Origin: Bacteroidota bacterium
Lineage (GTDB): Bacteria > Bacteroidota > Bacteroidia > Palsa-965
Assembly: GCA_013289095.1 (NCBI GenBank)
Contig: JABDAO010000004.1
Span: 1,530-65,529, forward strand
DNA length: 64,000 nt
Direction of reading: 5' to 3'
The position numbers and the translations under genes are program-made. Every line of letters starts with the position of its first letter. Within the stretch, counting starts at the first letter, position 1. The notes under the pieces were generated by a model that was not told where the DNA came from, ran no database searches, and saw only the letters and a list, made by a program, of their open reading frames with translations. Shown one piece after another: positions 11,141-33,335 of the stretch.

Positions 11141-11548
11141 ATGAAAACACAGAAAAAAAAGACATCTGACAAATATGAGATGGTTGAACAAAACCTGACA
11201 TCCTATGCCTACATTCCAGAAATGAAGGATGACGGTTCTGTGTTTGAAAAAAGGAAAATAACCAGTGCAACATTTTCGCCCGATAAAACCTTGCTGATCC
11301 TCAACGGAGGATCACCCGACAACATACCCTACACCATCGTATTGAAAAGCCTTCGGAAAATCTATTCCAGAATCGATAGGGAATTTGATAAGATTATTAT
11401 TAACGGGTTTATAACTGTTGGCGAGGATTTCACCCTGTCAGACCGTTACAGACTTACAATCTACCTAAAAGGCTACCCGCAAAACAAGCATATCGGCGTC
11501 CATATCAAGAAAGCGCTGATGGAAGCTTCAGAACAGTTGAATTCCTGA
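11141..11548 (+). CDS. hypothetical protein
   Basis: 135-aa ORF with no recognisable motif. Called on length and composition only. Confidence 0.4.
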   Translation: MKTQKKKTSDKYEMVEQNLTSYAYIPEMKDDGSVFEKRKITSATFSPDKTLLILNGGSPDNIPYTIVLKSLRKIYSRIDREFDKIIINGFITVGEDFTLSDRYRLTIYLKGYPQNKHIGVHIKKALMEASEQLNS

Positions 11549-11795
11549 TAAACGCATCTTCTTCAAAACAATGAATCGGGCATCTGCTCCCGATGCCAGC
11601 GGTACCTGTCCCGCAAACGCACTCCATGCACGGTAAAATTACTCATCTCAACCATGCTTTGTCTGCATAAGACCGGGCACGGTCTGTCAATATCCCCACT
11701 TCATCGAATACCACAATTTGGTAATAATCTACAAACGCATTGGAGGGTTTTCTTTTTTACTATTGTGTCAGATTAGTCTTTCAGAAATCAGTTTC

Positions 11796-11934
11796 CTATA
11801 AACCAGGATTTTGCATGAGCCGTGTAACAGGCTAATGCAAAATGCGTTAAGCCTTGTGTGTGCCCCGATATCTATCGGGACGGTTATCCCGCTGGGTGCA
11901 TGTGTTGTCAGCCTTTTGAGCAGGGCGGGATAAA
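11796..11934 (-). repeat. core repeat, copy A (shortest copy, lacks the variable insert)
   Basis: The reverse complement reads TTATCCCGCCCTGCTCAAAAGGCTGACAACACATGCACCCAGCGGGATAACCGTCCCGATAGATATCGGGG...GCTTAACGCATTTTGCATTAGCCTGTTACACGGCTCATGCAAAATCCTGGTTTATAG. Confidence 0.8.
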
Positions 11935-12068
11935 AGTATCAGCTTTCATTTAGTGACGTGTTGTTTGTATTCAGTCGTGTAATCCAGGAAGAGCAAGCGT
12001 GGTCTGCATTTTTTACAGAACGAAAATGCAGTTTGAAAAGGGCAGGTTATAGTTAATAACGGTTGAAA

Positions 12069-12935
12069 ATGTTGAGTATGGCACTGACTGAACAACGCAG
12101 AATAGAATTGGGAAGCACAGAAGACGTTGCTTTTCTGGATCTTCAACAGGAATATCAGCGTTTATTTCGCAACAACAAAGAACTGGTGGATGGCATTCAT
12201 TATGCCAAACTTATTCAACAAGGCATCCTTCCACAAGACCGGCATCTGAAACGGCTTTTTGACGATTACTTTGTGATTTACAAACCCCAGAATATCATCG
12301 GTGGAGATCTCTATTGGGTGGGTCAGAAGGGGAACCTGAAAATATTTGCCGTGGCCGATTGTACGGGTCATGGCGTAAGCGGGGCCCTGCTTTCGGTGCT
12401 TGCCCTCTCCTTTCTGAACTATGTGATCCTGGGCAAAGAATTTACCGAAGTGCATGAAGTGCTCGAAGAGCTCGACAAGAAATGGATCGAAACCTTTCAC
12501 CAGGGTGTGGAGTTTGGGTTCGACAACGATTGGATGGAAATAGGTCTTTGTTCATTTAATACCGAAACACGCGAACTTCAGTTTGCCGGGGCTTTTAATA
12601 AAGTTACCTGTATCACCGGTACAGAGGTGGTAAATATGTACGGAAGCCGATATCCGATAGGAGGCTGGCAGCTTGAAAAGATGCGTACGTTTCAAAATCA
12701 TTCGATGGCGCTTCCCCCTGATACCATGGTATATCTGAGCAGCGATGGGTTTAAAGACCAGTTTGGTTTTACCCAGCGTAAACGGTTCGGCTCCAAACGG
12801 CTCACCGAACTTATCTTGTCGGGAGCATCCTTGTCTGTTTCAGAACAGAAAAAGAGAATGGAATCAGCCTTTGAAAATTGGAAAGGCAAGGAAACCCAGA
12901 CAGATGATGTCTGTATGCTGGGTATAAAACTCTGA
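12069..12935 (+). CDS. PP2C/SpoIIE-family protein serine/threonine phosphatase
   Basis: The ORF track starts at TTG 12063; the first ATG is at 12069. Motifs GGDLYWV and ADCTGHGVSGALLS, plus C-terminal DDVCMLGIKL, are typical of SpoIIE/PP2C. Confidence 0.8.
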   Translation: MLSMALTEQRRIELGSTEDVAFLDLQQEYQRLFRNNKELVDGIHYAKLIQQGILPQDRHLKRLFDDYFVIYKPQNIIGGDLYWVGQKGNLKIFAVADCTGHGVSGALLSVLALSFLNYVILGKEFTEVHEVLEELDKKWIETFHQGVEFGFDNDWMEIGLCSFNTETRELQFAGAFNKVTCITGTEVVNMYGSRYPIGGWQLEKMRTFQNHSMALPPDTMVYLSSDGFKDQFGFTQRKRFGSKRLTELILSGASLSVSEQKKRMESAFENWKGKETQTDDVCMLGIKL

Positions 12936-12936
12936 T

Positions 12937-12970
12937 CCCCCTTGCTGATTTGTTGCCAAGGGGGCTTTTT
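12937..12970 (+). terminator. rho-independent terminator
   Basis: CCCCCTTG (12937-12944) pairs with CAAGGGGG (12957-12964) and is followed by CTTTTT. It lies directly after the phosphatase stop. Confidence 0.7.
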
Positions 12971-13731
12971 AACCCGCATAAGGCATTTGCGCACAAGCCA
13001 TCTGATGCACACGCTGGGATGATCTGAAAATCCCTGAAATAGAGGGTTCCTGATTTGTCACATGCATCGATGAAACAGTGGGCTATGAAAACGGGCTGTT
13101 GGTCTGTTGCAGGTTCGGGTTGATACTTGTAAAAGACAGGCCACGTCTAAATAATGAAAATAGTTCTTGCTTTTCTAATTTCTTTATCCTATACTTGTAT
13201 TATCAATTAGGAAAAGAAGCGAATATCCTACAAGAGTCCTGAACCTTCAGGACAATCCGAAGCCGCTTCAAGCATGTTGTCACTCACAACTTTTAAACGC
13301 TTGAAGCCATGTTTCAAAACAAAATCACACAAACCTTAGGAGTTATTTATTCGGCAGTGCGTAACCTGGTGTTTACACCGGTCTTACAACGTATCTCTAT
13401 TGTTAACTCGCCGATAAATGTGGATTGTTCCTGGAACTAAACAACCATTTCGGCGTACAAGATTACCGAACAAGATTTAGTGAAGCTTAATTTTTACCGG
13501 TCGATGAAATGACTGCAGACCATTTCAGCCGATCATCCCGTTTGTTATTGCACGCATACCTCTTTCAAAAGTCAACGTACGAGTACCCATCAGCCAGGCT
13601 GAGTGAACGGAAAAAAAACGTGAACCCCGCCCAGGGCCATACGCATGCCAAAACTGAAAATCACAACAACGTTTGCGCACCACAAACGAAACGAACAAAA
13701 CCAGAAAAACGCCACAAACACACACACACCG

Positions 13732-14709
13732 ATGAACAAAGAAATGATTACCCTTGGATCAAAAAAAGCGCTTACACTTATAGCCATGGCCGGAACACTC
13801 GGTCTGTTTTCGCAGCATGCCCTGGCTCAAGCAGCCACACAACAAACAAAGCCGGTTCAAACAGAACAGGTAAAAGATAAGGATGAGGACGGGGAAGAAG
13901 AGGCAGAACGCGATGGAAGGGCCATAAACTGCGGAGGCACCGAACGCTGGGCTCAAAAGACCCTCACCGATGCCGCCGAGAACACCATTAATTTTACTCC
14001 TGTTTTGCAAACCGTGCAGCAGCTTGCCGGTTTGACCACACCAACGCCTTCTACCACGATGCTCAGAACGGCGCCAGTGGAGACTACTACGTATATTACG
14101 CATTGCACAATCACCGAAAAACGGGCAGAGACAGACAACGATTATCACCTGGTATTAACAGACGGTGGTGCAAATACCATTATCGGCGAAATACCCGACC
14201 CCACCTGCGCCACCGCAGCATCATCGCCTTATGTGAACCAGTTTATTGCTGCCCGTAATTTTATTGATGCACACATTGCCAGCGGAAATGTACTAAGCGT
14301 AAATATCGGCGCGGTGGTCATTACCGGCGTAGGTTTTGTTGATCCGCCGCATGGTCAGACCGGTGTTGCACCAAACAACTTTGAACTGCACCCCATCATC
14401 AACATTGTATTCGAAACAGCAACCGGAATAGAAGATCTGTCTAAAACCCTCAATGTAACCGTTGGCCCCAACCCTATGACCACTTCCATGGTCTTTAAAG
14501 CCACCTCCACACTCGGCAACCTCGGAACATGTTCACTGGCGCTGTACGACATGCTTGGCGAAATCGTAAAAGAAGTGCCTGTTCCGGTAATGGGCAATAA
14601 CACCATTGAGTATACCCTGGTGAAAGACGACCTGAAAGCAGGCATCTATCTCTACCGCTTGAAAAACAACGGAGCCCCGCTCTACGAAGGAAAAATAGTA
14701 GTTCAGTAA
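13732..14709 (+). CDS. secreted protein with T9SS type A C-terminal sorting domain
   Basis: ORF 13645-14709. The Met at 13732 starts a signal peptide (MNKEMITLGSKKALTLIAMAGTLGLFSQHALAQ). The C-terminus LALYDMLGEIVKEVPVP...GIYLYRLKNNGAPLYEGKIVVQ is Por_Secre_tail-like. Confidence 0.8.
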   Translation: MNKEMITLGSKKALTLIAMAGTLGLFSQHALAQAATQQTKPVQTEQVKDKDEDGEEEAERDGRAINCGGTERWAQKTLTDAAENTINFTPVLQTVQQLAGLTTPTPSTTMLRTAPVETTTYITHCTITEKRAETDNDYHLVLTDGGANTIIGEIPDPTCATAASSPYVNQFIAARNFIDAHIASGNVLSVNIGAVVITGVGFVDPPHGQTGVAPNNFELHPIINIVFETATGIEDLSKTLNVTVGPNPMTTSMVFKATSTLGNLGTCSLALYDMLGEIVKEVPVPVMGNNTIEYTLVKDDLKAGIYLYRLKNNGAPLYEGKIVVQ

Positions 14710-14764
14710 ACTACATCTTACAACGTGCATTGGTTGTGTGTTGTCCAATGTGCGTTTTGTGCAA

Positions 14765-14812
14765 TCCCCGGGAGACAGAGGTCAAGGACCTGTCGGCCCG
14801 GGGATTTTTTTT
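14765..14812 (+). terminator. rho-independent terminator
   Basis: TCCCCGGG (14765-14772) pairs with CCCGGGGA (14797-14804) and is followed by a T8 run. Confidence 0.65.
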
Positions 14813-14818
14813 GTCCTT

Positions 14819-15040
14819 CCCCACGACTCACCCCCCGGCCCCCTCTCTGCAAGCAGAGAGGGGGAGAAAAAAAGCTGGACAAAACGATGGGTGTTTTGTT
14901 CAAATGAATTCAGTTGAATTCATTTGAATAATTCAACACAAAGGCTCCCCCTCTCTGCTTGCAGAGAGGGGGCCGGCTGCCTTCGCTTGAACGTACTTCC
15001 CTTCGGGCTTCGGCAGCTAAAAGGGGGGTGAGTCGTGGGG
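14819..15040. repeat. ~220-bp palindromic REP-like element
   Basis: The left arm CCCCACGACTCACCCCCCGGCCCCCTCTCTGCAAGCAGAGAGGGGG is mirrored by CCCCCTCTCTGCTTGCAGAGAGGGGGCCGG ... GGGGGGTGAGTCGTGGGG. The centre is the palindrome TTCAAATGAATTCAGTTGAATTCATTTGAA. It sits between convergent 3' ends. Confidence 0.75.
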
Positions 15041-15046
15041 TGGGTG

Positions 15047-15832
15047 CTACAGCACATACGAGTGTGCAATCTGCCCAATCTGTATTTCGCCCCCGCGTAT
15101 GGTGCGCATCACTTTTCCATAGTAAAGTGTTCCCGATATCAGACCGGTAATGGTGACGCGGCAAACATCCGATTTCATGGCCAGTTTAAAATTCACACCG
15201 TCGGTGCTTAGCCAGTAATCATGCCCGGTCTGACGGGGCCCTGCTTTTACGGTTATTTCCAGTTCGCCCGGGTGTTTGCCGGGTTTCATGTTCATGGCGG
15301 GTTTTTCAAACACACCGTCGCTCTTCACCTCCATTCCCGCCAGGTGTATGGTAGCTACTGCTGTCTTAGGGTTCAGGTTCGCCAGATTTTCGACATACAT
15401 AGCCAGCACTTTGAGCGCTGCCATGAGGTCTCTTTTCGCGATTTTCGCAAGATCAGTAGCGGCGCCTATGGCTTTTCGTGAAGCCGTTTCAGCGCTCAGG
15501 ACTGCGTCGATGAGTGCAGAAATGGCTGCCAGGGTTGGGGTAGGGTTTGTAAAGGTGGTGGCATTGGTGGTCATGCACGTCACATAATGTTTCGCATCGC
15601 TCGCCACCTGCAGCGTCGATTTGTTGTGAAGTTTGAGTACTACAAGGGCTCTTTTTACCTTTTCCTGAAGAGCAAGCAGAATAAGTGCGGGAACGATGTT
15701 CTTGGCTTTTTCATGTTTTTTGTTTTTAGCTGTGAATTGATGCTGATGCTTGTACCGGCTGCGGTTGATAGTGCCGGGTAATTTATTGCATTTCAGAGAT
15801 TTGCAGGCTATTTCGCATGCCATCCCGAGCAA
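15047..15832 (-). CDS. hypothetical protein, helical N-terminal half plus fibronectin-III-like C-terminal half
   Basis: 261-aa ORF. MTTNATTFTNPTPTLAAISALIDAV ... LAMYVENLANLNPKTA resembles a Bacteroidota family I know only as hypothetical/FN3. The start is uncertain (15832, 15823 or 15574). Confidence 0.6.
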   Translation of the reverse strand: MLGMACEIACKSLKCNKLPGTINRSRYKHQHQFTAKNKKHEKAKNIVPALILLALQEKVKRALVVLKLHNKSTLQVASDAKHYVTCMTTNATTFTNPTPTLAAISALIDAVLSAETASRKAIGAATDLAKIAKRDLMAALKVLAMYVENLANLNPKTAVATIHLAGMEVKSDGVFEKPAMNMKPGKHPGELEITVKAGPRQTGHDYWLSTDGVNFKLAMKSDVCRVTITGLISGTLYYGKVMRTIRGGEIQIGQIAHSYVL

Positions 15833-15860
15833 AATGACCTGTTGAAAGTGCCTGGAGGGT

Positions 15861-16260
15861 CTTTACGGGTTGCTATCTCCCCTTTACGGGTTGCTATCTC
15901 CCATCTACGGGTTGCTATCTCCCCTTTACGTGTTGCTATCACCTAGATACGGGTTGCTATCCCCCATACACGGGTTGCTATCACCCAGATACGGGTTGCT
16001 ATCACCCCTCTACGGGTTGCTATCACCCAGATACGGATAGCTATCACCCATATACAGATTGCTATCACCCAGATACGGATAGCTATCACCCATATACAGA
16101 TTGCTATCACCCAGATACGGGTAGCTATCACCCAGATACAGTTAGCTTTCACCCATATACAGATTGCTATCATCCAGATGCGGATTGCTATCACCCATAT
16201 ACAGATTGCTATCATCCAGATGCGGGTTGCTGTACCTCATGTAGCTATAGAGATAACCCG
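15861..16260. repeat. tandem array 1, 21-nt period, ~19 units (unit TACGGGTTGCTATCACCCAGA)
   Basis: ACGGG recurs at 15865, 15886 and so on, exactly 21 nt apart. Later units alternate in a 42-nt higher-order pattern. The array starts 29 nt upstream of the 15832 start codon. Confidence 0.9.
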
Positions 16261-16460
16261 CCTGGTAGCCCGTGTGCACAGATTGCCAAGAGGGGCGGTT
16301 CCGCAGTTTCCAGATTCCGGCTTGCCGGGCTTGGTGGAATGCTGTCTTTTTTCAATGAACGATTGTATAGTATGCAAAAAACGCTATTCAATGTTTATAT
16401 TAACTGTAAAAATCGGAAAATATCGTATAGGAGATAAACTATTTAGCTTATTTGTGAATA

Positions 16461-16660
16461 ATTTGGGGTCAACGTCATTTTCCGGGGAGTAACCTGTTTT
16501 ATCACGCATGCTGCATTCGTAGCAGGCTTTCGTGCTCAAAAGGCCAGCAGCTCAACGAACCCGCGGGATAAGCCATCCCGATGACTATCGGGACACACAC
16601 AAAGCTTAACGCACGTTGCATTAGCCTGTTACACGGCTTTTCCAAAATCCCGGTTTATAG
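16461..16660 (+). repeat. module (16461-16498) plus core repeat, copy B (16499-16660)
   Basis: The module ATTTGGGGTCAACGTCATTTTCCGGGGAGTAACCTGTT is shared (inverted) with 35399-35436. The core runs from TTATCACGC to CCCGGTTTATAG and is collinear with copies A, C and E. Confidence 0.8.
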
Positions 16661-16740
16661 CATAGACTTTCGATAAAAAACGTTTGATATTCCTCATTCC
16701 GGTACGAAACGTTCGGAAATCTGTCAGAACAGGAATGGAA

Positions 16741-17340
16741 CCTTAGGGAATGTATCAGGAACATTTAAAGGCATCTTACAACTTTGACAAGGCATCTCGT
16801 AGCCTTTGAAAGACATCTTACAACCTTGCAAAGGCATCACGCAGCCTTGATAAGGAACCAGAGGGAAAGTATCAGGAACCTCGGGGAACATGTCGGGAAG
16901 CTTAGGGAACATGTCGGGAAACTAAGGGAACATGTCGGGAAGCTTAGTAAACATGTCGGGAATCTTGGGGAACATGTCGGGAAGCATAGTAAACATGTCG
17001 GGATCCTCGGGGAACATGTCGGGAAACTAAGGAAACATGTCGGGAAGCTTAGTAAACGTGTCGGGAAGCTTAGCAAACATGTCGGGAAGCTTAGTAAACG
17101 TGTCGGGAAACTTGGGGAACATGTCGGGAAGCTTAGTAAACATGTCGGGAAACTTGGGGAACATGTCGGGAAGCTTAGTAAACATGTCGGGAAGCTTGGG
17201 GAACATGTCGGGAAGCTTAGTAAACGTGTCGGGAAGCTTGGGGAACATGTCGGGAAGCTTAGTAAACATGTCGGGAACCTTGGGGAACATGTCGGGAACC
17301 TTCGGGAATGTGTCGGGAACCCCGGGGGAACGTGTTTCTG
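16741..17340. repeat. tandem array 2, 21-nt period, ~28 units (main unit GGGAACATGTCGGGAAGCTTA; four units of AAGGCATCTTACAACYTTGMN at 16767-16852)
   Basis: TGTCGGG recurs at 16891, 16912 and so on, 21 nt apart. The ORF track shows open frames on both strands across it. Confidence 0.9.
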
Positions 17341-17400
17341 GCTGGACCAACATGCAGCAGTCATTCGATCTCTGCCCCCCAGCTTTTGACATTGACCCAT
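17327..17400 (+). repeat. conserved segment S, copy B
   Basis: GGAACGTGTTTCTGGCTGGACCAACATGCAGCAGTCATTCGATCTCTGCCCCCCAGCTTTTGACATTGACCC is nearly identical to the reverse complement of 34941-35025, apart from a ~9-nt indel. Confidence 0.8.
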
Positions 17401-17586
17401 AATTTGAAGGTGAATTTTGGGGAGAGCAATCTGATTTTCTTGAACGGTTGGGAAAATAAGTGTGTGGGAAAACTGATTTACTGAGGGAAGACGGGTGGGG
17501 GCGGGAGCCAATAACCCCATGATTTAGTACTACCGTGTATCCCTGTTTTTTTGTGACAATCAAAACCCGGGACATCGCGCCCGGCT

Positions 17587-17706
17587 GGAGCGCAACGGTT
17601 GTTTGGATGGTGTTTCTACAGACATTACGCCCCTCCGCGGCGTTAAGATGTAGCCCCAGGGGGCGGAATGTTTGCAGAAAAGAGTAGAATAGAATCGTTG
17701 CGCTCC
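17587..17706. repeat. REP-like long hairpin
   Basis: GGAGCGCAACG (17587-17597) pairs with CGTTGCGCTCC (17696-17706). The inner CTACAGACATTACGCCCC pairs imperfectly with GGGGCGGAATGTTTGCAG. This sequence type commonly yields spurious ORFs in Bacteroidota. Confidence 0.4.
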
Positions 17707-17767
17707 GGCGGAGCGCGAGGTATGGACCTGGGTGGAACAGGAATGCGCCTGTTGTTAATAACACTCC

Positions 17768-21232: not shown

Positions 21233-21802
21233 ATGGAAGAACATCTAATGGGCAACACCTGTCTTTCGTTCCCCCGGCTCGAAACCGAGCGTCTGGTGTT
21301 ACGGTTGATTGTGATGGCCGACCGGGAGGCTATTTATACATTGTACAACGACGAGGCCGTGATGCAATACCGGGGCACAGATCTGTTTGCAGCAAGGACT
21401 CAGGCCGACTCGCTGATCCGTGGTTTTGAGGAAGCCAGACAACAAAAAACAGGGTTGCGCTGGGCCCTTGTTTTCAAAGGAAAGGAAGAAGAGCTCCTGG
21501 GTACCGCAGGGCTGAATAAAATAGACTGGAGACATTTCAGGGGAGAAATCGGGTATGAGCTCTCGCCCGCCCATTGGAACAAAGGATTGATGACCGAAGC
21601 GCTCCGTGCCATCACCAACTATTCTTTTAAAAACCTGGGGTTGCATACGCTCGAAGCAAATATTGCTCCTGCAAATCTCGCTTCAGAACGAGTCCTGCAA
21701 AAATTGCAGTTTGTAAAAGAAGCCCATTTCAGGGAAAATTGGTACTACAAAGGCTGGTGGGATTCGGTGATTTATACCCTGCACTCCAATCAGAACCGTT
21801 AG
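21233..21802 (+). CDS. GNAT-family N-acetyltransferase (RimJ/RimL-like)
   Basis: 189-aa ORF. TERLVLRL...GEIGYELSPAHWNKGLMTEALRAITNYSF...LEANIAPANLASERVLQKLQF is the classic RimJ-like pattern. Confidence 0.85.
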   Translation: MEEHLMGNTCLSFPRLETERLVLRLIVMADREAIYTLYNDEAVMQYRGTDLFAARTQADSLIRGFEEARQQKTGLRWALVFKGKEEELLGTAGLNKIDWRHFRGEIGYELSPAHWNKGLMTEALRAITNYSFKNLGLHTLEANIAPANLASERVLQKLQFVKEAHFRENWYYKGWWDSVIYTLHSNQNR

Positions 21803-22728
21803 TTTGAACCTCCTGCCACAGGGGCTGCTTTGTGGCCAGCTTCACGAAACCGCATACTCACAAACAACTCGTGCGAGCCGGTGCTGTAATTCTGAATATC
21901 GGTAATCGCATAATCATAGGCATACCCAATGGTGATATTGTCCTGATAGGTATAACCGATAAGCGCCACGATTGCATCGAGGTTACGGTAAGCGGCCCCT
22001 ATCCAGATTTTTTTACGATAGATCAATCTCGCGCCTAGATCGAATTGTACCGGTGAAGGATCCACATACCGGGCAATCAGGGTTGGTTGAATGGCCCAGA
22101 GATCGTTGATGTCATATTTGTAGCCGGCCATGAGTGTATAGTGGCGGGTGATTACGCTCGGAGTGCTGGCCATGTAATCAAAGAACTTCAGTTTATTCTC
22201 CACCATCTCCGGACATGAAAATCCGGCATACCATTTATCTCCGCTGTAAGCATAGACCCCGGCGCCGAATTCGGGCATCATCACACTTTGCAAACCATTG
22301 CTCAGGACATTGTCATTCGGGTCGTGGAGTATTATTTTAGAACCATCCACCATATATTGTAACAACCCGCCCTGTATCCCGGCAGCCAATCTGATCTTTT
22401 TGGTGAGGTTGATATGATAGGCGTAGGATAGATAACAGCCTGTACGGCGTGTGGGCCCATCGATATCGGTAAACACCTGTCCGCCAAAACCCATATTCGG
22501 GTTACTGAGTTGTCCGTTCACACTCAAGACATAGGTGCGGGGTGCATCGGTAATTCCGAACCATTGATAGCGGTTGATGGATGAAGCCTCCACGTAAGGA
22601 TTCTTTCCTGCTATCGCGCAGTTCTCCACATAATCATTCAGCATATACTGACTGAAATGGGGCAATTGTTGTGCAATCAGTGGCTTTAAGGCAATGAGAG
22701 CGAAAAAGGCCAGTAGGAATTTTTTCAT
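21799..22728 (-). CDS. PorP/SprF-family T9SS membrane protein
   Basis: 309-aa ORF with a signal peptide then QQLPHFSQYMLNDY, the family N-terminal signature. It lies directly downstream of a type B CTD giant protein. Confidence 0.85.
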   Translation of the reverse strand: MKKFLLAFFALIALKPLIAQQLPHFSQYMLNDYVENCAIAGKNPYVEASSINRYQWFGITDAPRTYVLSVNGQLSNPNMGFGGQVFTDIDGPTRRTGCYLSYAYHINLTKKIRLAAGIQGGLLQYMVDGSKIILHDPNDNVLSNGLQSVMMPEFGAGVYAYSGDKWYAGFSCPEMVENKLKFFDYMASTPSVITRHYTLMAGYKYDINDLWAIQPTLIARYVDPSPVQFDLGARLIYRKKIWIGAAYRNLDAIVALIGYTYQDNITIGYAYDYAITDIQNYSTGSHELFVSMRFREAGHKAAPVAGGSN

Positions 22729-22730: not shown

Positions 22731-25700
22731 TTATCGCATTATGGTTATGGAACCTGAATATTTTGTTGTGTACAGCGGATCATGCAGATCTACCAGATAG
22801 TAGTAGGTGCCTACAGGCAGGGGTTTGCCTTTATAGGTTCCGTCGAAGTCATTCTGGTAATCTTTTTCCTGGAAGAGGAGCTCGCCCCAACGGTTAAATA
22901 CCTCTACCACATTGTTCGGGAATTTGTGGATATTGTCGATCACCCACAGATCATTGACCCCATCGCCATTGGGTGTAATACCGTTGGCAAAGATAATTTC
23001 GGGAAGCACGGTAACAACAACCGTATCGCTCGATTTACAACCGTTTGCATCTGTCACGGTTACGGTATAAATTGTTGTCGTGATCGGGTTTACGGTCGGG
23101 TTAGAATTGGATGAATCGTTTACACTGGCCGATGGCGACCAGTGGAACAGAACACCGTCAGCACAGGTAGGGCTGCCGCCAATGGTGATGTCTGCATTGG
23201 TAAGGATGGTCTGTGGAGGGCCAGCGCTTACTACAGGCGGAGGATTTGAAGTTACAACCACCACTGCGGAGTCTGTACATCCCGAATTTCCGATAATCAG
23301 TTCGTAGGTTGTAGCTCCGGCGGGAGGTGTAACATGGGTCTTCTGTGTGGTATCACCAACCAGTACAAACCCCGGCATCTGGTACCAATGGTAGGACAGT
23401 GCGTTGGTGCTCAGAGAGCCATCCAGAAGCAACGAACCCTGGATACAGAATGGCATATTGGGTCCGGCATTGGCATTTAGGGAGATGATCGGTTTGAGGG
23501 TGTCGAGAATATGCTGCACACAACCGTTTGCATCGGTCACGGTAAGCGCATAGTCTCCACCCATCCTGCTGGTGAGGTTCATACTGGCCGATATAAATGC
23601 ACCCGAGCCGGTCCAGTTAAACGTATAGGGGGTTGTTCCGCCCAGCGGAGTGATTGTGATACTTCCGCCCGGAGCATTGTCGCAAGGCGGTTCGACCAGC
23701 GAAGAAGTAAATGCAAGCGACGAGGGTTGGATAATACTCACAATCAGGCTGTCGGCGCAGGCATGGTTGTCTTTCAGCTGGAGCGTATACGAACCGGCGC
23801 AAAGCAACGAATCTGTTCCCGATACATTGATTCCAGGGCTCCAGGAATAGGTATAAGGAGCTGTTCCTCCCGAAGGAACGGAAACGATCTTTCCGTTACA
23901 GGTTGCGTTACAGAGGATATTGGTAACCTGAGGGGAGCTGAAGGAAAGCTGTTGAGGCTGTGTGATCACAAAACCGGTTGAATTTGCACAGCCGATGGCA
24001 TCTGTTACCTGCACGACATAGCTTCCGGCACAAAGCCCTGTGCCGCCTGATGTAGCCTGACCAGCACCCGGAGCAGGTGTCCAGGAGTAGGTGTAAGCAG
24101 GATGGCCTCCGGCAACAATCACCGTATCCTTGCCTCCACAGAGGTTGTTACAGGAAATATTTGTAGAAAGGTTGCGTATCACCGGGCCGTTCGACGTGTT
24201 GATGACGATCACGAAGATATGCGAACAGCCTGTGGCATCGGTTATCATAACAGAGTCAAGACCTTTACAAAGGGCGGTTTGAGAAGCCGTTGGAGGCAAT
24301 CCACCCGACCAGGAATAGGTGTAAGGTGCAGTACCCCCGCTGGGGTTTAACGTGATCGAACCATTACAAAGACCGCAGGTGGAAGGTACAACAAGCTGAT
24401 TGGTGATGTAATTGCCCGGCTGGGTGATCGAAACCGAATCGGTACGTATACATCCGTGGGCATCACTCACTTCGAGGAAGTATTGCCCGGCGCATTGTCC
24501 GGAAAGGCTGTTTGTGTTTTGCCCTCCGGGCGTCCAGCTGAAGGTATAGGGTGGAGTTCCTGCGCTCGGTGTGGCAGTAACGGCCCCGTTGCAAGTGCCA
24601 AAACAGGAGATATTTGTCAGAGCCATTGCCGACGGGCCGGGCCCGTTGATATTGCTCAATGGCATGTTGAATGAATAATTACAGCCTGCCGCATCCGACA
24701 CACTGACTGAATAAACACCGGCGCATAGACTTGTAGCCAAAGCCGTGGTCGACCCTGTGCTCCACTGATAGGTGTACAGACCGGTACCTCCTGTGGCTGT
24801 GATGGTAGCGCTGCCATTGCAGATTCCGCAGGCAGGGCTTACAATTACAGATTGCTCTGTTATGGCAGCAGGCGCAACGAGTGTAACTGCCGGTTTGATA
24901 TTGCAACCGTTTGCATCCAGCACATTGACAGAATACGTACCAGCACATAAATTGGTAGCGGTAGAATCTGATTGCCCAAGCGGATCTGTCCACTGATAGG
25001 TATACGGTGCGGTTCCCGTGCTCATCGTAATGGTAGCTGCGCCGGCACAGGTATTGTTGCAAGGCGGGTTCAGCTGGGTCATATTCCCCTGGAAAATAGT
25101 TGACGGAACAAACGAGTTGACAAAGGATGAGTCGCATCCATTGGCATCTGTTAGTAACAACGTATAACTACCCGCGCAAAGATTATTGTCGAGCGCTGTG
25201 GCAGAACCTCCTGTCCAGGAATAGGTATAGGCCCCGGTGCCTCCGGTTGGATTGGCCAGAACAGAACCGTTACAAAGACCGGTACAGGTTGATTGGGTTA
25301 CGGTTGGGTGTTCGAGTAACTGGCCTGGGGATGCGATATGGAATATTTGGTTGTAGATACAATGATGGGCATCTGTTACCGTGAGTACATATCCCCCGGC
25401 ACATAAATTTGTCAGGTTTGATGCTGTACTGCCCAGGCTATTGTTGAGCGAATCTGTCCAGGCATAGGTATAGAGGGGTGTGCCCCCTACAACCACGGTA
25501 AGATTTGCAGTGGCATTACACGTTTGGAAACAGGTTGGTTCGGTGGTTGTGATCGTGTCGCTGGTTGGCCCTCCTGTGTTGTTGAGCGGTATTGGCGCCG
25601 AGGTTGAAGAACACCCGTTTGCATCGGTTATTTTAACCACATATAAACCGGCACAAAGCGAGGATATATTCGTAGTGCCCTGACCGGTAACACCTGCCGG

Positions 25701-28700
25701 GGTCCACGCGAATGTATAGGGAGCGTTTCCACCGGCAGGAATGATGCTGATGGTTCCGTTACAGGCTCCGCAATTTGAATTTCCGACTGCGTTTGCAGAG
25801 GATATCAGAGCCGGATTCGTGAGGACAACAGTCTGGGTATCTCTACAGGAGTGCGCATCGGTGGTTATCAGGGTGTAACTTCCGGCACAAAGACTTGAAA
25901 GGTTTTGTGTGGTGGCCGAATTAGACCAACTGTAGGTATACGGGGCCGTTCCACCAACAGGGTTGGCTGCAGCTGTTCCGTTACAAGATGCGTTACACGA
26001 TGGACTTATGCCCGAAGTTCCTGCCAGGAGGGCTGTAGGCTGGGTGATGATGGATGTTTGTGAGCCGTTACAGCCATGAGCATCTGTCACTGTTAATGTA
26101 TACGTCCCCACACAAAGAGCAGAGAGTCCGGATGTAGTCAAACCGCCTGGAGACCACGAGAATGAATAGGCCAGGGTCCCGCCGGTTACGGCAGAGCTGA
26201 TTGATCCATTGCAAAGTGCATTACAGGTGGTGGCCACAGGTGTAAGCGTGATGCTGACAGGGGCAGGTTCGGTAATGGTTGCATTGGCCGTAACGGTGCA
26301 ACCGTGTGCATCGGTACCTGTTGAACTGTAGCTCCCGGCACAAAGTCCGTTCAGTGTGGTACCCGACTGGCTTCCGGGGGCCCACAAGAATGTATAGGGC
26401 GAGGTTCCGCCGCTTGCCGAAACAATTGCGGTTCCATCACAAATGCCAGAACAGCTGGCATTGGTTACAACAATGGTATCTTTTAAAACCGCGGGTTGGA
26501 TGATGGTGCAGTTTTGGCTTTGAGTACAACCGTTCTGATCGGTAACTTGTACGGTAAAAGAACCCGGGCAAAGATTCGTGATGTTTGAAGCGAGCGGCCC
26601 GTTCGACCAGGAATAGGTAAAAGGTGCAGTGCCTCCTGAAACAACGCTTGTGGCAGATCCGTTACACAAACCGTTACACGAAACGTTCGTAGCATTGATA
26701 AGGACGCCGAGTGAGCCGGGCTGTGTAATCGTGTAGACCCCTTGCTGGGAGCAGCCATTCTGATCTGTAACGGTAACGGTATAAGTGCCTGGAATCAAAC
26801 CGGTGACTGTGGGTGTTGAATTGATCAGCGGGAGCGCCCAGGAATAGGTATAGGAGCCGGTACCACCTGTAACTCCAACGGTAATCTTTCCGTTATTTGC
26901 CCCGCCACAGCTAACCTGGGTAATGGCAGGTGTGAGTGTGAGGGCGGCAGGTTGGGCAATAGTGAGTGAAACAATCTTAATACAACCGATTGCATCCTGA
27001 ATTTCGAACGTATATGCCCCCTGACAGAGGGCTGAAGCATTGGCTGTGCCCTGACCCGTTATAGCGCCTGGGGCCCAGCTCAGCGTATACGGAGGTGTTC
27101 CACCCGAAACAGTAGCTGCTGCAGATCCGTTGCATCCTCCGTTGCAGGAAACAGGAGTTGGGAGGATAGCGGCAGTGGGGCCGGTCGGGCTGCTCAGTCC
27201 TACTGACAATACCGTATCGCATCCGTCATTATCAGTGATGGTGCAGGTGTAAAAACCAGTACAGAGTCCCGTTATTGACGATGTTGCCGGCTCCACCGGG
27301 GTCCAGCTATAGGTATAAGGAATTGTTCCGCCGGTAGGGCCGAGCGTAATTTTTCCGTCACATGCTGCACAGGTTGATGGCTGGGTGGTAAGGGTGTTTG
27401 GAACAATGGAGGCAGGCTGGGCAATCGTAATAACCTGTATGCTGTCACAGCCTTTCGAATCTGTTACATCCAGGGTGTAGTTCCCTGCACATAGATTATG
27501 GATGCTGGATGATGTTTGACCTCCCGGAGTCCAGGAATAGGTATATGCACCTGTGCCCCCAGTTACCGCCGCAGAAGCGCTGCCTGTACAAAGCCCATGA
27601 CAAGCCGGGTTTGTAATAGTAACGAGCGGGCTTACTTTTCCGGGATTGGCAAAGGTAACTGTAGCAGAATTAAAACAACCATTGGCATCCGTTGCTTCGA
27701 CTGTATACGTGCCGGCGCACAGATTTATTGCATTTTGTGTAAGCTGTGCCGGGACAAGTGGGCTCCAGGAATACGTATAGGGTGATAAACCGCCCGATGC
27801 GTTTGCGGAAGCGCTGCCATCGCAGGAATTGTGACAGGTTACATTTGTAGAAGTGCTGGAAATACTGATAAAGACCGTCTGAACGATGGTAGCCACTGCT
27901 GAAACCGCGCAGCCGTTATGATCGGTAACACTACAGGTATAGTTGCCTACACAAAGTGTATTTGCCGTAGGGTTGGTCTGCACCGGTACTGTATTCCAGG
28001 AGATCGTATAGCTGCCTGTGCCACCCGTAATGCCAACGGTGGCGGTGCCCTGACAACTGCCACACGTGGTTGTTTGCCCTGAAATGACCGCATTTAAAAC
28101 AGGTGGCTGCCCGATTGTGAAGATCTGGGTACCGTTACAACCGTTTGCATCGGTAACTACACAGGTATAGGTACCGGGGCAAAGATTGGTAATATGTGTA
28201 GTTCCTTGCTGGGCCGGAGTAATAGAAGCAGTTGGTGTCCATGAATAGGTATAGGCCCCGGTTCCACCGGTTGGAGCTGCAAGGGCTGCACCGTCGCATA
28301 TACTTGCGCACGTCACCGCCGTTGTCCCTACGTTTGGAGCAACCACGCTCGGAGTTGTGACAATGACCGTCTGAACACTTGAACAACTGTTGGCATCTGT
28401 AACCGTTACCACATAACTTCCTGTTCCCAGGTTGTTCTCGCAGGGCGTATTAAGTCCGGATGGGTTCCATGAATAAGTATACGGCGTTGTGCCTCCGGTT
28501 GGTGCAGCGCACACCTGGCCTGTGCTCGAACCAGAGCATGCCGTTGGGCTCGATGTGGCATTGGCGGCCAGCAGATTGGGCTGTGTCAGTGTCGAGGTAT
28601 TCGTAGCAACGCAGTTATGGGCATCGGTCACCGTAACGGTATAGGTGCCATTGCACAGGTTGCTCAAGATAGGTGTTCCGGGATTGGCTGGAACCCAGGC

Positions 28701-31286
28701 ATACGAATATCCGGCAGTTCCACCGCTTACACTGGTAGAGAGCGTACCATTACACAATCCATTACAGGACACCGAAGTTGGTGTGATCGATACTACGAGT
28801 GGAGGCGGGCTGGTAATCGTTATCACTTGAGTCTTCACACAGCTGTTCGCGTCTGTAACGGTAACGGTATAGTTTCCAGCACATAAATTTGTGAGCGTCT
28901 GGTGCAGGCCGCCTGGTGACCACGAATAGGTGTAAGCTGCAAGCCCCCCGGTGGCATTGGCAGTAGCCGACCCGTCACAGGGAGAGTTACAACTTTGATT
29001 TGTCCCAACAGCCCCTGGCACTAATAACGCCGGCTGGGTGATGACAATTGTTTGTGTCGCGGTACAGGCATTTGCATCTGTTACGGTAAGGGAATATGTG
29101 CCAGGGCAAAGCCCCGTTGCTGTTGCTGTGGTGCCGCCCCCCCCGATTGATCCGGCCGGTGTCCAGGAATAGGTATAAGTGCCGGTGCCACCTGAGACAG
29201 CTGCGGAGGCTCTGCCGTTACAATTCCCATTACAAGTTACCATGGTCGGGGTGATGGTAATACCTATAGAGCTGGGCTCAACAACGGCCACAGAATCAAG
29301 AAAGGTACAACCCTTGGCATCTGTAACATTAACCGTATACTCATTTTTACAGAGGGAGGTCACGGTGGCTGTATTCATCGCACCAGGATTCCAAGAATAG
29401 GTGTATGGAAGGTTCCCCCCCGACAGAGTGGCCGTTGCTTTTCCGGTGCAGATGGCATTGCAGGTAAGATTAACCTTTGTCATGACAGCCGAAATTGCAA
29501 TCGGTTGAGTGATGGTTACCGTGGTCGTGAATGGGCAGTGGTTAGCATCTGTAACGTTCAAGGTATACGTACCTGCACCCAGGGCACTAAGCGTAGGGAC
29601 GGTAATTCCGCTTGGGGGATTCCAGGAATAGGTATACCCTGGGGTTCCACCGCTAACGGCTGCGCTCACAGAGGCATTCGTATTTCCATTGCAATTCAAG
29701 GGGTTGTTTGTGGTGGTATTGACCGAACTCAGTGGAGCAGCCGGTTGTGAAATGGTAGAAGTAAAAATGGCGGTACAACCACCGGCATCTGAAACCGTGC
29801 ATGTATAGGTGGTCGCGCCGGCGCATAACCCTGAAATGGTCGTCGCGTTTGGATTTGCCGGGTTCCAGGAACAGGTATATGGGGAGGTGCCTCCGGTGGG
29901 CGCTACGGTTAACGACCCTGTGCAGGACCCGAAACAGAGCACATTCACAGCGCTTCCATTGGCATTCACAAGCGATGGGGCAGTTAATGTGACCACGTAG
30001 GGTGATGAAAGGGTACATCCGTTTCCATCGGTGATGTTACAGGTATAAGATGCAGCACAAAGCGAGGTTAAATTTGGTGTGTTTTGGCCTTGTGCGTTGG
30101 TGACAATGCCAATGGATGATGTCCAGGAATAGGTATAGGCCCCACTTCCTCCCGTAGCAACCAATGATGCCGTTCCATCACAACTGCCGTTACAAACCGG
30201 ATTTGTTTCTCCGGTCGAAATCGCACTCATCGCAGGAGGGGCAGTCAGGTTGATATTGCAAAAACAAGTCTTTGCAGGTGTTTCAGAATCGGTTACTTTG
30301 ATCGAATAATTACTGGTTCCAATGCAAACGTTTGAACAGGAGGCTGTCGTGCAAGAAATATCAGCTGAGGGAAACCAGGAATACGTAAAGGGCGCTGTTC
30401 CTCCGGCTATCGAAGCATTAAGCGTTGCATCACAAGAACCTCCACAGGTTTCGGGTGTATCGGTCAGCGTAATTGTAAATGCGGCACAGCTGGTGCCGGC
30501 AGGTACACAGCCCGACGGAGCCCCCTGAACACGATGGAAACGGGAATTTCCGTTTTGGTAATTCTGGTACATCTGAGCATCCCGTAATAAAAGAACTGCC
30601 GTTGATGCATGAAGTTCAAAGTTTTGGTTTTCGTTTATGTACCAGGTATGCCAGACAACCACGGTGGAACTGCCCAAGTCAAATGTACATTTACCGTTAG
30701 GACGGTGTATTACGTTTCCAAAACAGAGATTCTTGTCGTTCGTGACGAGGGTTCCTCGTTTAAAGACCAGTGTGGAATTCCAGTTTGTGTTAATGTCGTT
30801 TTTTAAGCTCCAGATACCGGTTCCGTCAAGGATCAGCTCGCTGCCCTCAAACCGACTACCCCCAAAATCAATCACTTCATTGTCGGAAGCGCCCAAATAA
30901 ATGTTTCCGGAATAAGAAAAGTCGATATTGCTTTGTGCCGGAAGCATAAACGACCCATAAACGGAAAGCACGGGCGAGTTGCCTTGTGACCTAAACTGAG
31001 GATAGTTGGTCGTCGCGGTCCATAAAAAACTGGAACAAGTCGCAGAGTCGCTGATCGTTACTGCCTGATTCGGACCGGAGAACGAACTCTGGTCAAAATG
31101 TACATTGTCAACCAATCCTGGAATGGGGGCGCCGCCAACTCCCCCGCTTTGTAGCGACCAATGGGAGGCGTCAGACCACTGACCGGTTCCACCTACCCAA
31201 TACTTATCGGTTCCGCTTGAAAAGGCTGAGAGTGAGGTAATAAGAATAAGGGAAAGAAGTATCGTTCTTTTCAAACTGGTGATCAT
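22731..31286 (-). CDS. giant cell-surface adhesin with ~30 SprB repeats and a T9SS type B (gliding-motility-associated) C-terminal domain
   Basis: 2851-aa ORF with a signal peptide. I count about 30 occurrences of the C-x-G-x-C(D/N)G...GGT-x-PYTYSW module. The C-terminus GITPNGDGVNDLWVIDNI...VFNRWGELLF...GTYYYLV is the CHU_C/type B sorting domain. Confidence 0.95.
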   Translation of the reverse strand: MITSLKRTILLSLILITSLSAFSSGTDKYWVGGTGQWSDASHWSLQSGGVGGAPIPGLVDNVHFDQSSFSGPNQAVTISDSATCSSFLWTATTNYPQFRSQGNSPVLSVYGSFMLPAQSNIDFSYSGNIYLGASDNEVIDFGGSRFEGSELILDGTGIWSLKNDINTNWNSTLVFKRGTLVTNDKNLCFGNVIHRPNGKCTFDLGSSTVVVWHTWYINENQNFELHASTAVLLLRDAQMYQNYQNGNSRFHRVQGAPSGCVPAGTSCAAFTITLTDTPETCGGSCDATLNASIAGGTAPFTYSWFPSADISCTTASCSNVCIGTSNYSIKVTDSETPAKTCFCNINLTAPPAMSAISTGETNPVCNGSCDGTASLVATGGSGAYTYSWTSSIGIVTNAQGQNTPNLTSLCAASYTCNITDGNGCTLSSPYVVTLTAPSLVNANGSAVNVLCFGSCTGSLTVAPTGGTSPYTCSWNPANPNATTISGLCAGATTYTCTVSDAGGCTAIFTSTISQPAAPLSSVNTTTNNPLNCNGNTNASVSAAVSGGTPGYTYSWNPPSGITVPTLSALGAGTYTLNVTDANHCPFTTTVTITQPIAISAVMTKVNLTCNAICTGKATATLSGGNLPYTYSWNPGAMNTATVTSLCKNEYTVNVTDAKGCTFLDSVAVVEPSSIGITITPTMVTCNGNCNGRASAAVSGGTGTYTYSWTPAGSIGGGGTTATATGLCPGTYSLTVTDANACTATQTIVITQPALLVPGAVGTNQSCNSPCDGSATANATGGLAAYTYSWSPGGLHQTLTNLCAGNYTVTVTDANSCVKTQVITITSPPPLVVSITPTSVSCNGLCNGTLSTSVSGGTAGYSYAWVPANPGTPILSNLCNGTYTVTVTDAHNCVATNTSTLTQPNLLAANATSSPTACSGSSTGQVCAAPTGGTTPYTYSWNPSGLNTPCENNLGTGSYVVTVTDANSCSSVQTVIVTTPSVVAPNVGTTAVTCASICDGAALAAPTGGTGAYTYSWTPTASITPAQQGTTHITNLCPGTYTCVVTDANGCNGTQIFTIGQPPVLNAVISGQTTTCGSCQGTATVGITGGTGSYTISWNTVPVQTNPTANTLCVGNYTCSVTDHNGCAVSAVATIVQTVFISISSTSTNVTCHNSCDGSASANASGGLSPYTYSWSPLVPAQLTQNAINLCAGTYTVEATDANGCFNSATVTFANPGKVSPLVTITNPACHGLCTGSASAAVTGGTGAYTYSWTPGGQTSSSIHNLCAGNYTLDVTDSKGCDSIQVITIAQPASIVPNTLTTQPSTCAACDGKITLGPTGGTIPYTYSWTPVEPATSSITGLCTGFYTCTITDNDGCDTVLSVGLSSPTGPTAAILPTPVSCNGGCNGSAAATVSGGTPPYTLSWAPGAITGQGTANASALCQGAYTFEIQDAIGCIKIVSLTIAQPAALTLTPAITQVSCGGANNGKITVGVTGGTGSYTYSWALPLINSTPTVTGLIPGTYTVTVTDQNGCSQQGVYTITQPGSLGVLINATNVSCNGLCNGSATSVVSGGTAPFTYSWSNGPLASNITNLCPGSFTVQVTDQNGCTQSQNCTIIQPAVLKDTIVVTNASCSGICDGTAIVSASGGTSPYTFLWAPGSQSGTTLNGLCAGSYSSTGTDAHGCTVTANATITEPAPVSITLTPVATTCNALCNGSISSAVTGGTLAYSFSWSPGGLTTSGLSALCVGTYTLTVTDAHGCNGSQTSIITQPTALLAGTSGISPSCNASCNGTAAANPVGGTAPYTYSWSNSATTQNLSSLCAGSYTLITTDAHSCRDTQTVVLTNPALISSANAVGNSNCGACNGTISIIPAGGNAPYTFAWTPAGVTGQGTTNISSLCAGLYVVKITDANGCSSTSAPIPLNNTGGPTSDTITTTEPTCFQTCNATANLTVVVGGTPLYTYAWTDSLNNSLGSTASNLTNLCAGGYVLTVTDAHHCIYNQIFHIASPGQLLEHPTVTQSTCTGLCNGSVLANPTGGTGAYTYSWTGGSATALDNNLCAGSYTLLLTDANGCDSSFVNSFVPSTIFQGNMTQLNPPCNNTCAGAATITMSTGTAPYTYQWTDPLGQSDSTATNLCAGTYSVNVLDANGCNIKPAVTLVAPAAITEQSVIVSPACGICNGSATITATGGTGLYTYQWSTGSTTALATSLCAGVYSVSVSDAAGCNYSFNMPLSNINGPGPSAMALTNISCFGTCNGAVTATPSAGTPPYTFSWTPGGQNTNSLSGQCAGQYFLEVSDAHGCIRTDSVSITQPGNYITNQLVVPSTCGLCNGSITLNPSGGTAPYTYSWSGGLPPTASQTALCKGLDSVMITDATGCSHIFVIVINTSNGPVIRNLSTNISCNNLCGGKDTVIVAGGHPAYTYSWTPAPGAGQATSGGTGLCAGSYVVQVTDAIGCANSTGFVITQPQQLSFSSPQVTNILCNATCNGKIVSVPSGGTAPYTYSWSPGINVSGTDSLLCAGSYTLQLKDNHACADSLIVSIIQPSSLAFTSSLVEPPCDNAPGGSITITPLGGTTPYTFNWTGSGAFISASMNLTSRMGGDYALTVTDANGCVQHILDTLKPIISLNANAGPNMPFCIQGSLLLDGSLSTNALSYHWYQMPGFVLVGDTTQKTHVTPPAGATTYELIIGNSGCTDSAVVVVTSNPPPVVSAGPPQTILTNADITIGGSPTCADGVLFHWSPSASVNDSSNSNPTVNPITTTIYTVTVTDANGCKSSDTVVVTVLPEIIFANGITPNGDGVNDLWVIDNIHKFPNNVVEVFNRWGELLFQEKDYQNDFDGTYKGKPLPVGTYYYLVDLHDPLYTTKYSGSITIMR

Positions 31287-31535
31287 TAAAAAATGTGTAT
31301 GAATCGTTATACGGTCTGTATACTAATTAGTTTCAGCTGCAAAAGTTGGTAATAACACCTGTCGATTATCAAGGTCTGAGAGATTGATTTCAACAGTGAT
31401 ATGAACACCCAAAACTAAGGAAAAATTCAGTAACTACGAATTACATAAAGGTTCGGAGTTGAGAATCGTTTTCGGGGTCAATAAAGTGGAGGTCAGAGCG
31501 CTTTGAAGACACCTGATTCCTTCTCCGCAACCCCT

Positions 31536-31699
31536 TTATCCCGCATTATTCATTCGGAATCGGCCTTCCCGCTCAAAAGGCTGACAACACATGCACCCAG
31601 CGGGATAACCCGTCTCCCGATGTCTATCGTGACACATACAAGGCTTAACGCACCTTGCATTAGCCTGTAACACGGCAAATGCAAAATTCCGGTTTATAT
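31536..31699 (+). repeat. core repeat, copy C
   Basis: TTATCCCGCATTATTCATTCGGAATCGGCCTTCCCGCTCAAAAGGCTGACAACACATGCACCCAGCGGGATAACCCGTCTCCCGATGTCTATCGTG...TTGCATTAGCCTGTAACACGGCAAATGCAAAATTCCGGTTTATAT. It lies 250 nt upstream of the adhesin start. Confidence 0.8.
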
Positions 31700-31773
31700 C
31701 TTTCACCAATTCCAATTCCTACGGAATAATACGTTTGTATGATAAGCAGAAATTGGTGTAATGGCTTTGCCGG

Positions 31774-31784
31774 CCCCCCCCCCC
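31774..31784. repeat. C11 homopolymer tract
   Basis: CGG followed by 11 C at 31774-31784. This reads as poly-G in the sense of the adhesin gene, ~490 nt upstream of its start. Confidence 0.9.
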
Positions 31785-33212: not shown

Positions 33213-33335
33213 TCGAAAGAAACAGGTAGAATCATGGAGACTGTTTAACACACTTTGGCAATGTTTTTTTAAACAAACAACAAGAATGTTGTGCTCAGAT
33301 TGAAGATAAACCCTAATTTTCAACACTGATTTCCG

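Follow-up and report, generated by a model that had tools for sequence, protein, structure and literature searches.

The 64-kb window considered here (the whole stretch of DNA that was analysed) contains a hairpin-rich sequence that recurs between genes. A preliminary description recorded it as five copies of a structured intergenic "core" and allowed for a MITE with short inverted ends, a structured RNA gene, or both. The question is which of these the core represents, and whether the boundaries first given to it are those of the whole repeated unit. The genes of the window include those for a PorP/SprF type-IX-secretion protein, a 2851-aa repeat protein, an alternative complex III/cytochrome oxidase operon, RuvB and QueG, which indicates an aerobic Bacteroidota genome. 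The GC content of the window is 47.5%, and its sequence is also found in the Logan assembly of run SRR8422484. The source is an uncultured lineage in which, to our knowledge, no mobile elements have been described.

The Repeat Family and Its Modules

A profile made from the five intervals of the preliminary description matched exactly five places in the window and no others (nhmmer; E-values from 6e-38 to 5e-61, Table 1). All five reported copies were recovered, all are intergenic, and they lie on both strands at a density of five per 64 kb. Homology between the copies runs about 30-35 nt further to the left than the boundaries first drawn, and the elements of the family range in size from 140 to 933 bp. 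Pairwise identity among the copies is 69-87%; that they differ by 13-31% suggests that most of them are old. There are subfamilies: over one 43-nt stretch, A is 98% identical to C, and in the same block B and D are about 80% identical to each other.

The ordered blocks are TTATCCCGC, GCTCAAAAGGC, CCCGCGGGATAA, CCCGAT-N4-ATCGGG, GCTTAACGCA and TTGCATTAGCC...ATGCAAAATCCCGGTTTATAG, as had been reported. Copy D, to which they had also been attributed, has the left part only. The insert reported to be missing from copy A comprises 23 nt after TTATCCCGC, and the loop of the first hairpin is 32 nt in this copy versus 55 nt in the others. Three stems recur: H1 (TTATCCCGC/GCGGGATAA), H3 (TCCCGAT/ATCGGGA) and H4 (TTGCATTAGCC/GGCTAATGCAA). 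They had been described as recurring in every copy, but in copy B they pair at 8/9, 7/7 and 8/11 positions, respectively, the first stem of copy E pairs at 7/9, and copy D lacks two of the hairpins.

Table 1. Positions of the repeat copies, of the modules of elements B and D, and of the profile matches within the window.
Feature	Positions	Strand	Description
Copy A, leader-only	11771-11958	-	23-nt deletion in first hairpin loop
Copy A, nhmmer match	11778-11958	-	E 5e-45
Target-site duplication, left copy ATAATTTG	16458-16465		Identical 8-mer abuts both element ends
Element B, 933 bp	16466-17398	+	Left TIR, leader, 21-nt minisatellites, tail, right TIR
Copy B core/leader	16479-16660	+	Left arm TTTTCCGGGGAGTAACCTG and hairpin modules H1, H3, H4
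Copy B, nhmmer match	16479-16678	+	E 5e-61
Element B minisatellites	16767-17319	+	AAAGGCATCTTACAACTTTG x ~4, then GGGAACATGTCGGGAAGCTTA x 20.8 (TRF)
Element B tail box	17338-17398	+	Ends in right inverted repeat
Target-site duplication, right copy ATAATTTG	17399-17406		Same 8-mer as left
Copy C, with preceding end-like stretch	31475-31699 (core 31536-31699)	+	GGGTCAA at 31475
Copy C, nhmmer match	31521-31715	+	E 4e-55
Element D, 487 bp	34943-35429	-	Opposite orientation; module order of B when read on - strand
Element D tail box	34943-35004	-	95% over 62 nt to tail of B
Element D 21-nt repeats	~35040-35180	-	
Element D hairpins	35247-35334 and 35315-35397		Two left-type hairpins, head to head
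Element D left arm and inverted repeat	ending at 35429		
Copy D core, rearranged variant	35239-35411	+	nhmmer on both strands; inverted match to left half of B
Copy D, nhmmer match	35239-35411	+, plus weaker - strand match	E 6e-38 and 4e-15
Copy E	58059-58290 (core 58081-58252)	-	Between COX1 terminator and gene at 58294; outer limits uncertain
Copy E, nhmmer match	58064-58268	-	E 4e-50

Element B as the Full-Length Form

What was first delimited as a copy (16499-16660) is no more than the left leader of a much longer unit, the 933-bp element B. The element begins with GGGTCAACGTCA... and finishes with ...TGACATTGACCC; compared as terminal inverted repeats (TIRs; GGGTCAAYGTCA), these ends are identical at 11/12 positions, and at 17/25 when extended. 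The element is flanked by a perfect 8/8 direct repeat, ATAATTTG. At two given sites, such a match is expected by chance with a probability of about 1.6e-5, and an 8-mer match at the spacing of element B occurs at only 2 of 63,050 positions in the window. The GC content of the element is 0.49, and it contains no credible ORF.

The combination of TIRs and a target-site duplication is the classical signature of DDE-type transposition. By this signature, element B is, as far as its sequence can tell, a complete non-autonomous transposon, of which the "core" is the left-hand leader. The suggestion of a MITE was thus right in kind, but the ends and boundaries proposed for it were not: the pairing of TTATCCCGC with CCCGGWTTATA is weak (about 13/19 by eye) and was rejected as a pair of transposon ends, the true TIRs and duplication lying outside the coordinates first given. 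An 8-bp duplication and ends that start with GGG are features that we take to be compatible with several families (the IS1595/IS1016 group, ISL3, IS6), and no assignment to any of these is claimed; a literature search on the end-repeat sequence gave nothing relevant.

Element D, a Rearranged Relative in Opposite Orientation

Both extremities of element B recur at copy D. The 62-nt tail box of B is found, inverted, beside copy D at 95% identity, and the left arms of the two, with the end repeat, are 72% identical over 122 nt; this shared arm (ATTTG..GGGTCAA..TTTTCNGGGGAGTAACCTGTTTTATC) includes a block of 26 nt that is exact. Read on the minus strand, element D consists of the left arm, the TTATCCCGC...GCGGGATAA hairpin, an array with a 21-nt period and the tail box. 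Its leader is internally rearranged: two left-type hairpins lie head to head, and the CCCGAT and TTGCATTAGCC hairpins are absent. GGGTCAA is present at both ends of element D, where the inverted repeats (12/25) are weaker than those of B, and a comparison of its flanks revealed no recognisable target-site duplication (4/8).

The Short Copies A, C and E

No significant flanking direct repeat was found for copy A, copy C or the "short" form of B when tested against shuffled flanks, and inverted repeats were not demonstrable in A, C or E. The right margin of copy A is limited by a host block that ends at 11770 and is conserved in relatives. Ahead of copy C is a GGGTCAAT... stretch similar to an inverted tail-type end (GGGTCAATAAAGTGGAGGTCAGAG, 61 nt upstream of the copy, aligns to that end, inverted); no matching opposite end was found for it. 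Copy E is flanked by a 9/10 direct repeat, TTCCGGTAAA / TTCCGGCAAA (TTCCGGYAAA), with p ~0.02 uncorrected and an ambiguous position, and its left margin aligns by eye to the end repeat of B at about 12/17 positions. At this margin lies a TACCTTT(G/A) motif, which is also found in relatives, immediately upstream of the orthologous gene. The motif fits the -7 promoter consensus of Bacteroidetes, TAnnTTTG. The sequence CCGGTAAAGGTAATTTTC at the left end of E was considered as a degenerate end repeat and set aside as ambiguous, because relatives carry the -7-box-like TACCTTTG at the equivalent host position.

On the right, copies A, B, C and E have the same limit of homology (...CCCGGTTTATAG; ...GGTTTATAG), beyond which their flanks differ. 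Such a common boundary is not explained by a simple truncation model. Copies A, C and E are treated here as leader-only forms, and their mode of spread is the point at which the transposon model is weakest.

Genomic Context and Distribution

Copy A is situated between a gene for a 135-aa protein and a gene for a SpoIIE-type phosphatase, copy C is 250 bp upstream of the giant gene, copy D is between two convergent genes, and copy E is between the COX1 terminator (58014-58047) and the next gene start at 58294. A Pfam scan of the 20 larger ORFs in the window revealed no transposase, integrase or HUH protein, which, for the ORFs scanned, bears out the earlier remark that the window has no transposase gene. 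ORFs that run over the elements are artefacts of the repeats, without Pfam match. Searches for gene calls lying over further copies found none: an alignment of one reverse frame and a 2,223-aa chimera joined from every open segment of the six frames returned nothing, and a 60-aa frame searched with HMMER against 1.84 billion representatives found only two unrelated repetitive proteins.

Thirteen loci of relatives (about 167 kb), retrieved by way of a neighbouring protein with 56-71% amino-acid identity, contain no core, left arm or tail. These loci share the order COX1 - hypothetical - RuvB - QueG with the window. Four relatives have a spacer of 86-128 bp between COX1 and the next gene and a fifth has one of 233 bp, versus 302 bp here, of which about 170-230 bp are element E. 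Exact degenerate patterns of the most conserved block gave 42 loci in GTDB representatives and JGI metagenome contigs, collections that do not include the source genome, and all 42 were due to chance (nhmmer). A pattern of the 3' block found nothing in IMG/VR viral contigs, and copy B with its flanks had no blastn match in plasmid and phage collections. Within the exact-pattern scans and the few relatives searched, the family thus appears to be confined to the source lineage.

Comparison with the relatives also revealed several features of the host sequence. Ahead of the SpoIIE-type phosphatase gene lies an intergenic block (11700-11770; TTCATCGAATACCACAATTTGGTAATAATCT ... TACTATTGTGTCA) that is conserved at loci L044 and L045 of relatives, where protein identity is only 60-70%; its function may be that of a promoter/operator or of a small regulatory RNA. 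Between the hypothetical gene and ruvB, the spacer (59004-59923) measures 918 bp here, whereas in relatives these genes overlap or are up to 254 bp apart; the spacer holds a lineage-specific small ORF (~59352-59753) with an N-terminus resembling a signal peptide. In the window, the block of 135-aa protein, SpoIIE and Por_Secre_tail genes (11141-14709) is about 45 kb from the COX-side block (56180-64000), whereas in relatives (L045, L049, L053) it adjoins the acyl-CoA dehydrogenase/YceI/flavoprotein/QueG/RuvB/COX block, which indicates that the source lineage has undergone a rearrangement or gained a large insertion. The giant 2851-aa ORF (22731-31286) consists of repeats of about 228 nt (76 aa), lies directly upstream of the PorP/SprF gene (21799-22728) and probably encodes a cargo of type-IX secretion or an adhesin.

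Other palindromic sequences are present in the window. At 14835-14976, another palindromic intergenic element has a pair of 32-nt arms that are fully complementary and separated by 78 nt, and each arm forms a hairpin of its own (CCCCCTCTCTGC-AAGC-AGAGAGGGGG); a CTCTCC/GGAGAG motif near 44330-44350 is similar to it. Just to the right of element B, at 17572-17721, a 29-nt inverted repeat (83% complementary) around GCGCTCC-GGCGGAGCGC looks like a further, unrelated palindromic repeat. A stretch of 1.6 kb without any ORF of at least 80 aa (31700-33336) contains a C11 homopolymer at 31774-31784, several GC-rich hairpins with T-tracts (e.g. ~32640-32690 and ~32790-32870) and another GGGTCAA at 32786; Rfam had no match within this stretch.

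A Probable Lineage-Specific MITE-Like Family

The core is probably the leader module of a lineage-specific, modular, non-autonomous, MITE-like transposon family. Most likely, then, it belongs to a known kind of genomic parasite, of which this is a new example, and is not a new RNA gene. MITEs are typically shorter than 500 bp, with end repeats of 4-30 bp, stable stem-loops and flanking direct repeats that become fainter as the copies age (PMC10969869). The family is short and non-coding and is dispersed in intergenic copies, although element B, at 933 bp, exceeds the typical length.

In a full-length member, the order would be: left TIR (GGGTCAAYGTCA...), a hairpin-rich leader of about 200 nt, a variable 21-nt minisatellite, a 62-nt tail and right TIR. 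A transposase encoded elsewhere in the genome, presumably of the DDE type, would recognise both ends in trans and, by an 8-bp staggered cut, place the element in AT-rich DNA between genes; the cut would have left the ATAATTTG duplication around element B. Copies A, C and E would be leader-only derivatives, either truncated or recombined, and copy D would be an internally rearranged member. The hairpins would be inherited palindromes that decay neutrally rather than a selected RNA fold, and could incidentally serve neighbouring genes as terminators or RNA-stabilising structures.

Several lines of evidence lead to this reading: the dispersal of five intergenic copies over both strands; the ends of B (11/12, or 17/25) with their perfect 8-bp direct repeat; the left arm and tail common to B and D, in the same order and with 21-nt arrays between them; the lack of coding capacity in the elements and of a transposase among the 20 larger ORFs scanned; the variability of the array, which is not codon-like; the uncompensated substitutions in the stems; the syntenic relatives, which lack the element in about 167 kb and have shorter COX1 spacers; and the design of leader, tandem repeat and tail that is shared with the BrickBuilt MITE (PMC4596501). 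Against it are that both end repeats and the duplication are found in only one of the five copies (B), element D having end repeats without a duplication, that A, C and E have no convincing ends yet share a right boundary with B, that the divergence of the copies points to an old age for most of them, that B is long for a MITE, and that the array units of B and D are unrelated, with only the 21-nt period in common.

Possible Mobilization by Hairpins

The short copies could also have been spread by another route. An HUH tyrosine transposase (RAYT or TnpA) encoded elsewhere would mobilize hairpin units of REP/REPIN-like or IS200/IS605-derived type, which have no end repeats or duplications. Among other mechanisms, REPIN/RAYT would be the chief candidate for the short copies that consist of hairpins only: neither end repeats nor a duplication could be demonstrated for A, C and E, every unit is built from strong hairpins, and, as with REPs, these intergenic units occur in both orientations, also relative to the GGGTCAA ends (C versus B). 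Copy D resembles the inverted dimer of a REPIN in that its first hairpin is present twice, head to head, and the arms of hairpin 1 are spaced by exactly 55 nt in 5/6 instances, even where the sequence of the loop has diverged. As an explanation for the family, this route is nevertheless unlikely. The TIRs and 8-bp duplication of B are not produced by single-strand HUH transposition; REPs are 20-40 nt in length with a conserved 5' tetranucleotide, versus units of 140-200 nt with loops of 32-55 nt here; there is no HUH/RAYT gene among the window ORFs scanned; and active REPINs keep their stems, whereas the stems here decay uncompensated.

Is the Core a Structured RNA?

The reading of the core as a structured RNA gene would make it a multi-copy small RNA gene, perhaps on a mobile element, with a transcript from one strand that acts in trans or in cis. 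In 4/5 copies (A, C, D and E), the minimum free energy is below that of dinucleotide shuffles (z -2.0 to -4.1), but in B it is not (z -1.2). The three recurring hairpins are accompanied by conserved single-stranded blocks such as GCTCAAAAGGC and GCTTAACGCA, only a few nucleotides separate the end of copy E from a gene start, and small RNAs and promoters borne by MITEs are known (PMC10969869).

Other properties of the copies argue against such a gene. Rfam 15 gave 0 matches in the window at gathering thresholds, the copies remained without a match at E<=5 in the search of the window and at E<=10 in the search of copy C alone, and ARAGORN found nothing; with the plasmid and phage searches also without match, the earlier remark that the repeat could not be placed in any familiar RNA family or IS is upheld as far as tested. 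Across A, B, C and E, the arms of the three stems contain 10 substitutions, 9 of which break a pair, one of which gives a G-U pair and none of which is compensatory; RNAalifold likewise found 0 pairs with double changes, in a covariation test that has little power with only 4-5 copies. The antisense strands of the copies fold as well or better, as is expected of DNA palindromes. No element contains a TAnnTTTG box, a scan of 11400-17500 (copies A and B) placed neither a sigma-70 promoter nor an intrinsic terminator on them, the orientation of the copies relative to their neighbours is inconsistent, and relatives lack them. A selected RNA fold in the core is thus not supported, and a small RNA gene is improbable as its explanation.

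Tandem Arrays With a 21-nt Period

There are five tandem arrays in the 64 kb, all with a period of 21 or 42 nt and with units that differ in sequence; only those at 15780-16283 and 45197-45658 are related. The units of the arrays in B and D are not significantly similar and share the 21-nt period alone. In the 20-unit array of B, an invariant core of 13 nt, AACATGTCGGGAA, which contains the palindrome ACATGT, lies beside one contiguous variable block of 7-8 nt. The variability is block-wise, without a period-3 pattern, and all frames are open only because the unit has no stops; in element D there is no ORF across the array. The arrays were considered as genes for heptad-repeat proteins and this was rejected, as D has no ORF and the variability is block-wise rather than codon-wise; the arrays of B and D are probably not coding.

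Of the arrays outside the elements, the one at 15780-16283 (21-nt unit TACGGGTTGCTATCACCCATA, 17.5 copies) is 175 nt to the left of element B and has stops in its best frame. Its unit matches, inversely, half of the 42-nt unit at 45244-45600 (15/21, p<0.001). The 42-nt array at 45197-45658 (8.5 copies) is in an ORF (45170-45706) that would encode DSNPETPFPDSDVS repeats, and is either coding or a minisatellite; a Logan short-read contig of the same organism ends inside it.

An invariant core that alternates with a variable linker is the pattern of iteron or centromere-like arrays. It is improbable that the core, or the unit of leader, 21-nt array and tail, is a functional module, be it a structured RNA borne by a transposon or a phased protein-binding array (a 13-nt core every two helical turns) that serves the host or the element in regulation or DNA organisation, with the 21-nt period selected while the sequence of the unit is free to change. 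Least probable of all, in our view, is that the core, the phased arrays and the tail together are cis-acting DNA modules, with binding sites two helical turns apart and transposon-like ends that explain their spread only: five arrays keep a period of 21 or 42 nt despite different units, and the 13-nt core of B alternates with its linker, but there is no binding protein, partition or replication gene nearby, 21 is also divisible by 3, arrays are lacking in copies A, C and E, and MITEs are known with internal minisatellites to which no function has been assigned (PMC4596501).

Comparison With Known Elements

The closest likeness in architecture is to BrickBuilt, a MITE of Porphyromonas gingivalis in which a leader is followed by 1-23 copies of a 23-nt tandem repeat without spacers and then by a tail, with small TIRs (Klein et al. 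2015; PMC4596501). Its 19 copies are all intergenic, reach 991 nt, are confined to the species and its sister and include some that are only leader or only tail (PMC4596501). BrickBuilt and the present family have in common a Bacteroidota host, strictly intergenic positions, an apparent restriction to a species, the occurrence of reduced copies, absence of an internal transposase, a size of up to about 1 kb and, here in B and D, the order leader - tandem repeat - tail with small TIRs; this likeness is architectural only. BrickBuilt has IS5-like end repeats, GAGACCTTTGCA / TGCAAAGGTCTC (PMC4596501, Table 2), versus GGGTCAACGTCA / TGACATTGACCC here, irregular duplications of 2-5 bp versus 8 bp, and a 23-nt unit that is conserved between copies versus unrelated units with a 21-nt period. 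Its leader is not described as three hairpins, and no partial leader-only copies without the 23-nt repeat are reported (PMC4596501), whereas A, C and E have no array. Judged by end repeats, duplication length, repeat period and unit conservation, all of which differ, the present elements are not members of the BrickBuilt family.

MITEPgRS/MITE464 of P. gingivalis is likewise a MITE of Bacteroidota with internal tandem direct repeats (PMC4596501); it differs in having 41-nt repeats, repetitive flanks and IS5-type ends, GAGACTGTTGCA, with sequences compared at the end repeats only. A variable number of tandem middle modules is also characteristic of the layout boxA-boxB(n)-boxC of BOX elements. 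BOX (Streptococcus pneumoniae), ERIC and Correia elements are similar to the present family as modular, hairpin-forming intergenic boxes with copies that lack modules (reviewed in part in PMC10969869). BOX belongs to a different phylum, has another sequence and no clear duplication, whereas here one copy has TIRs and a duplication.

Implications

If the MITE-like reading is correct, Bacteroidota would have in this family a second modular MITE with an internal minisatellite, unrelated to the first. Some oddities remain: the common right boundary of the leader-only copies, the 55-nt spacing in hairpin 1 and the period of 21 or 42 nt in five arrays. That arrays should share a 21-nt period and not a sequence is a small puzzle, and no long-standing question is opened by it. 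The main value of recognising the elements is in correct annotation. They create spurious ORFs and can break short-read assemblies, as in the Logan contig that ends in the 42-nt array. At five copies per 64 kb, they could account for an appreciable part of the intergenic sequence, and they may supply neighbouring genes with terminators or promoters, as the position of copy E between a terminator and a gene start suggests.
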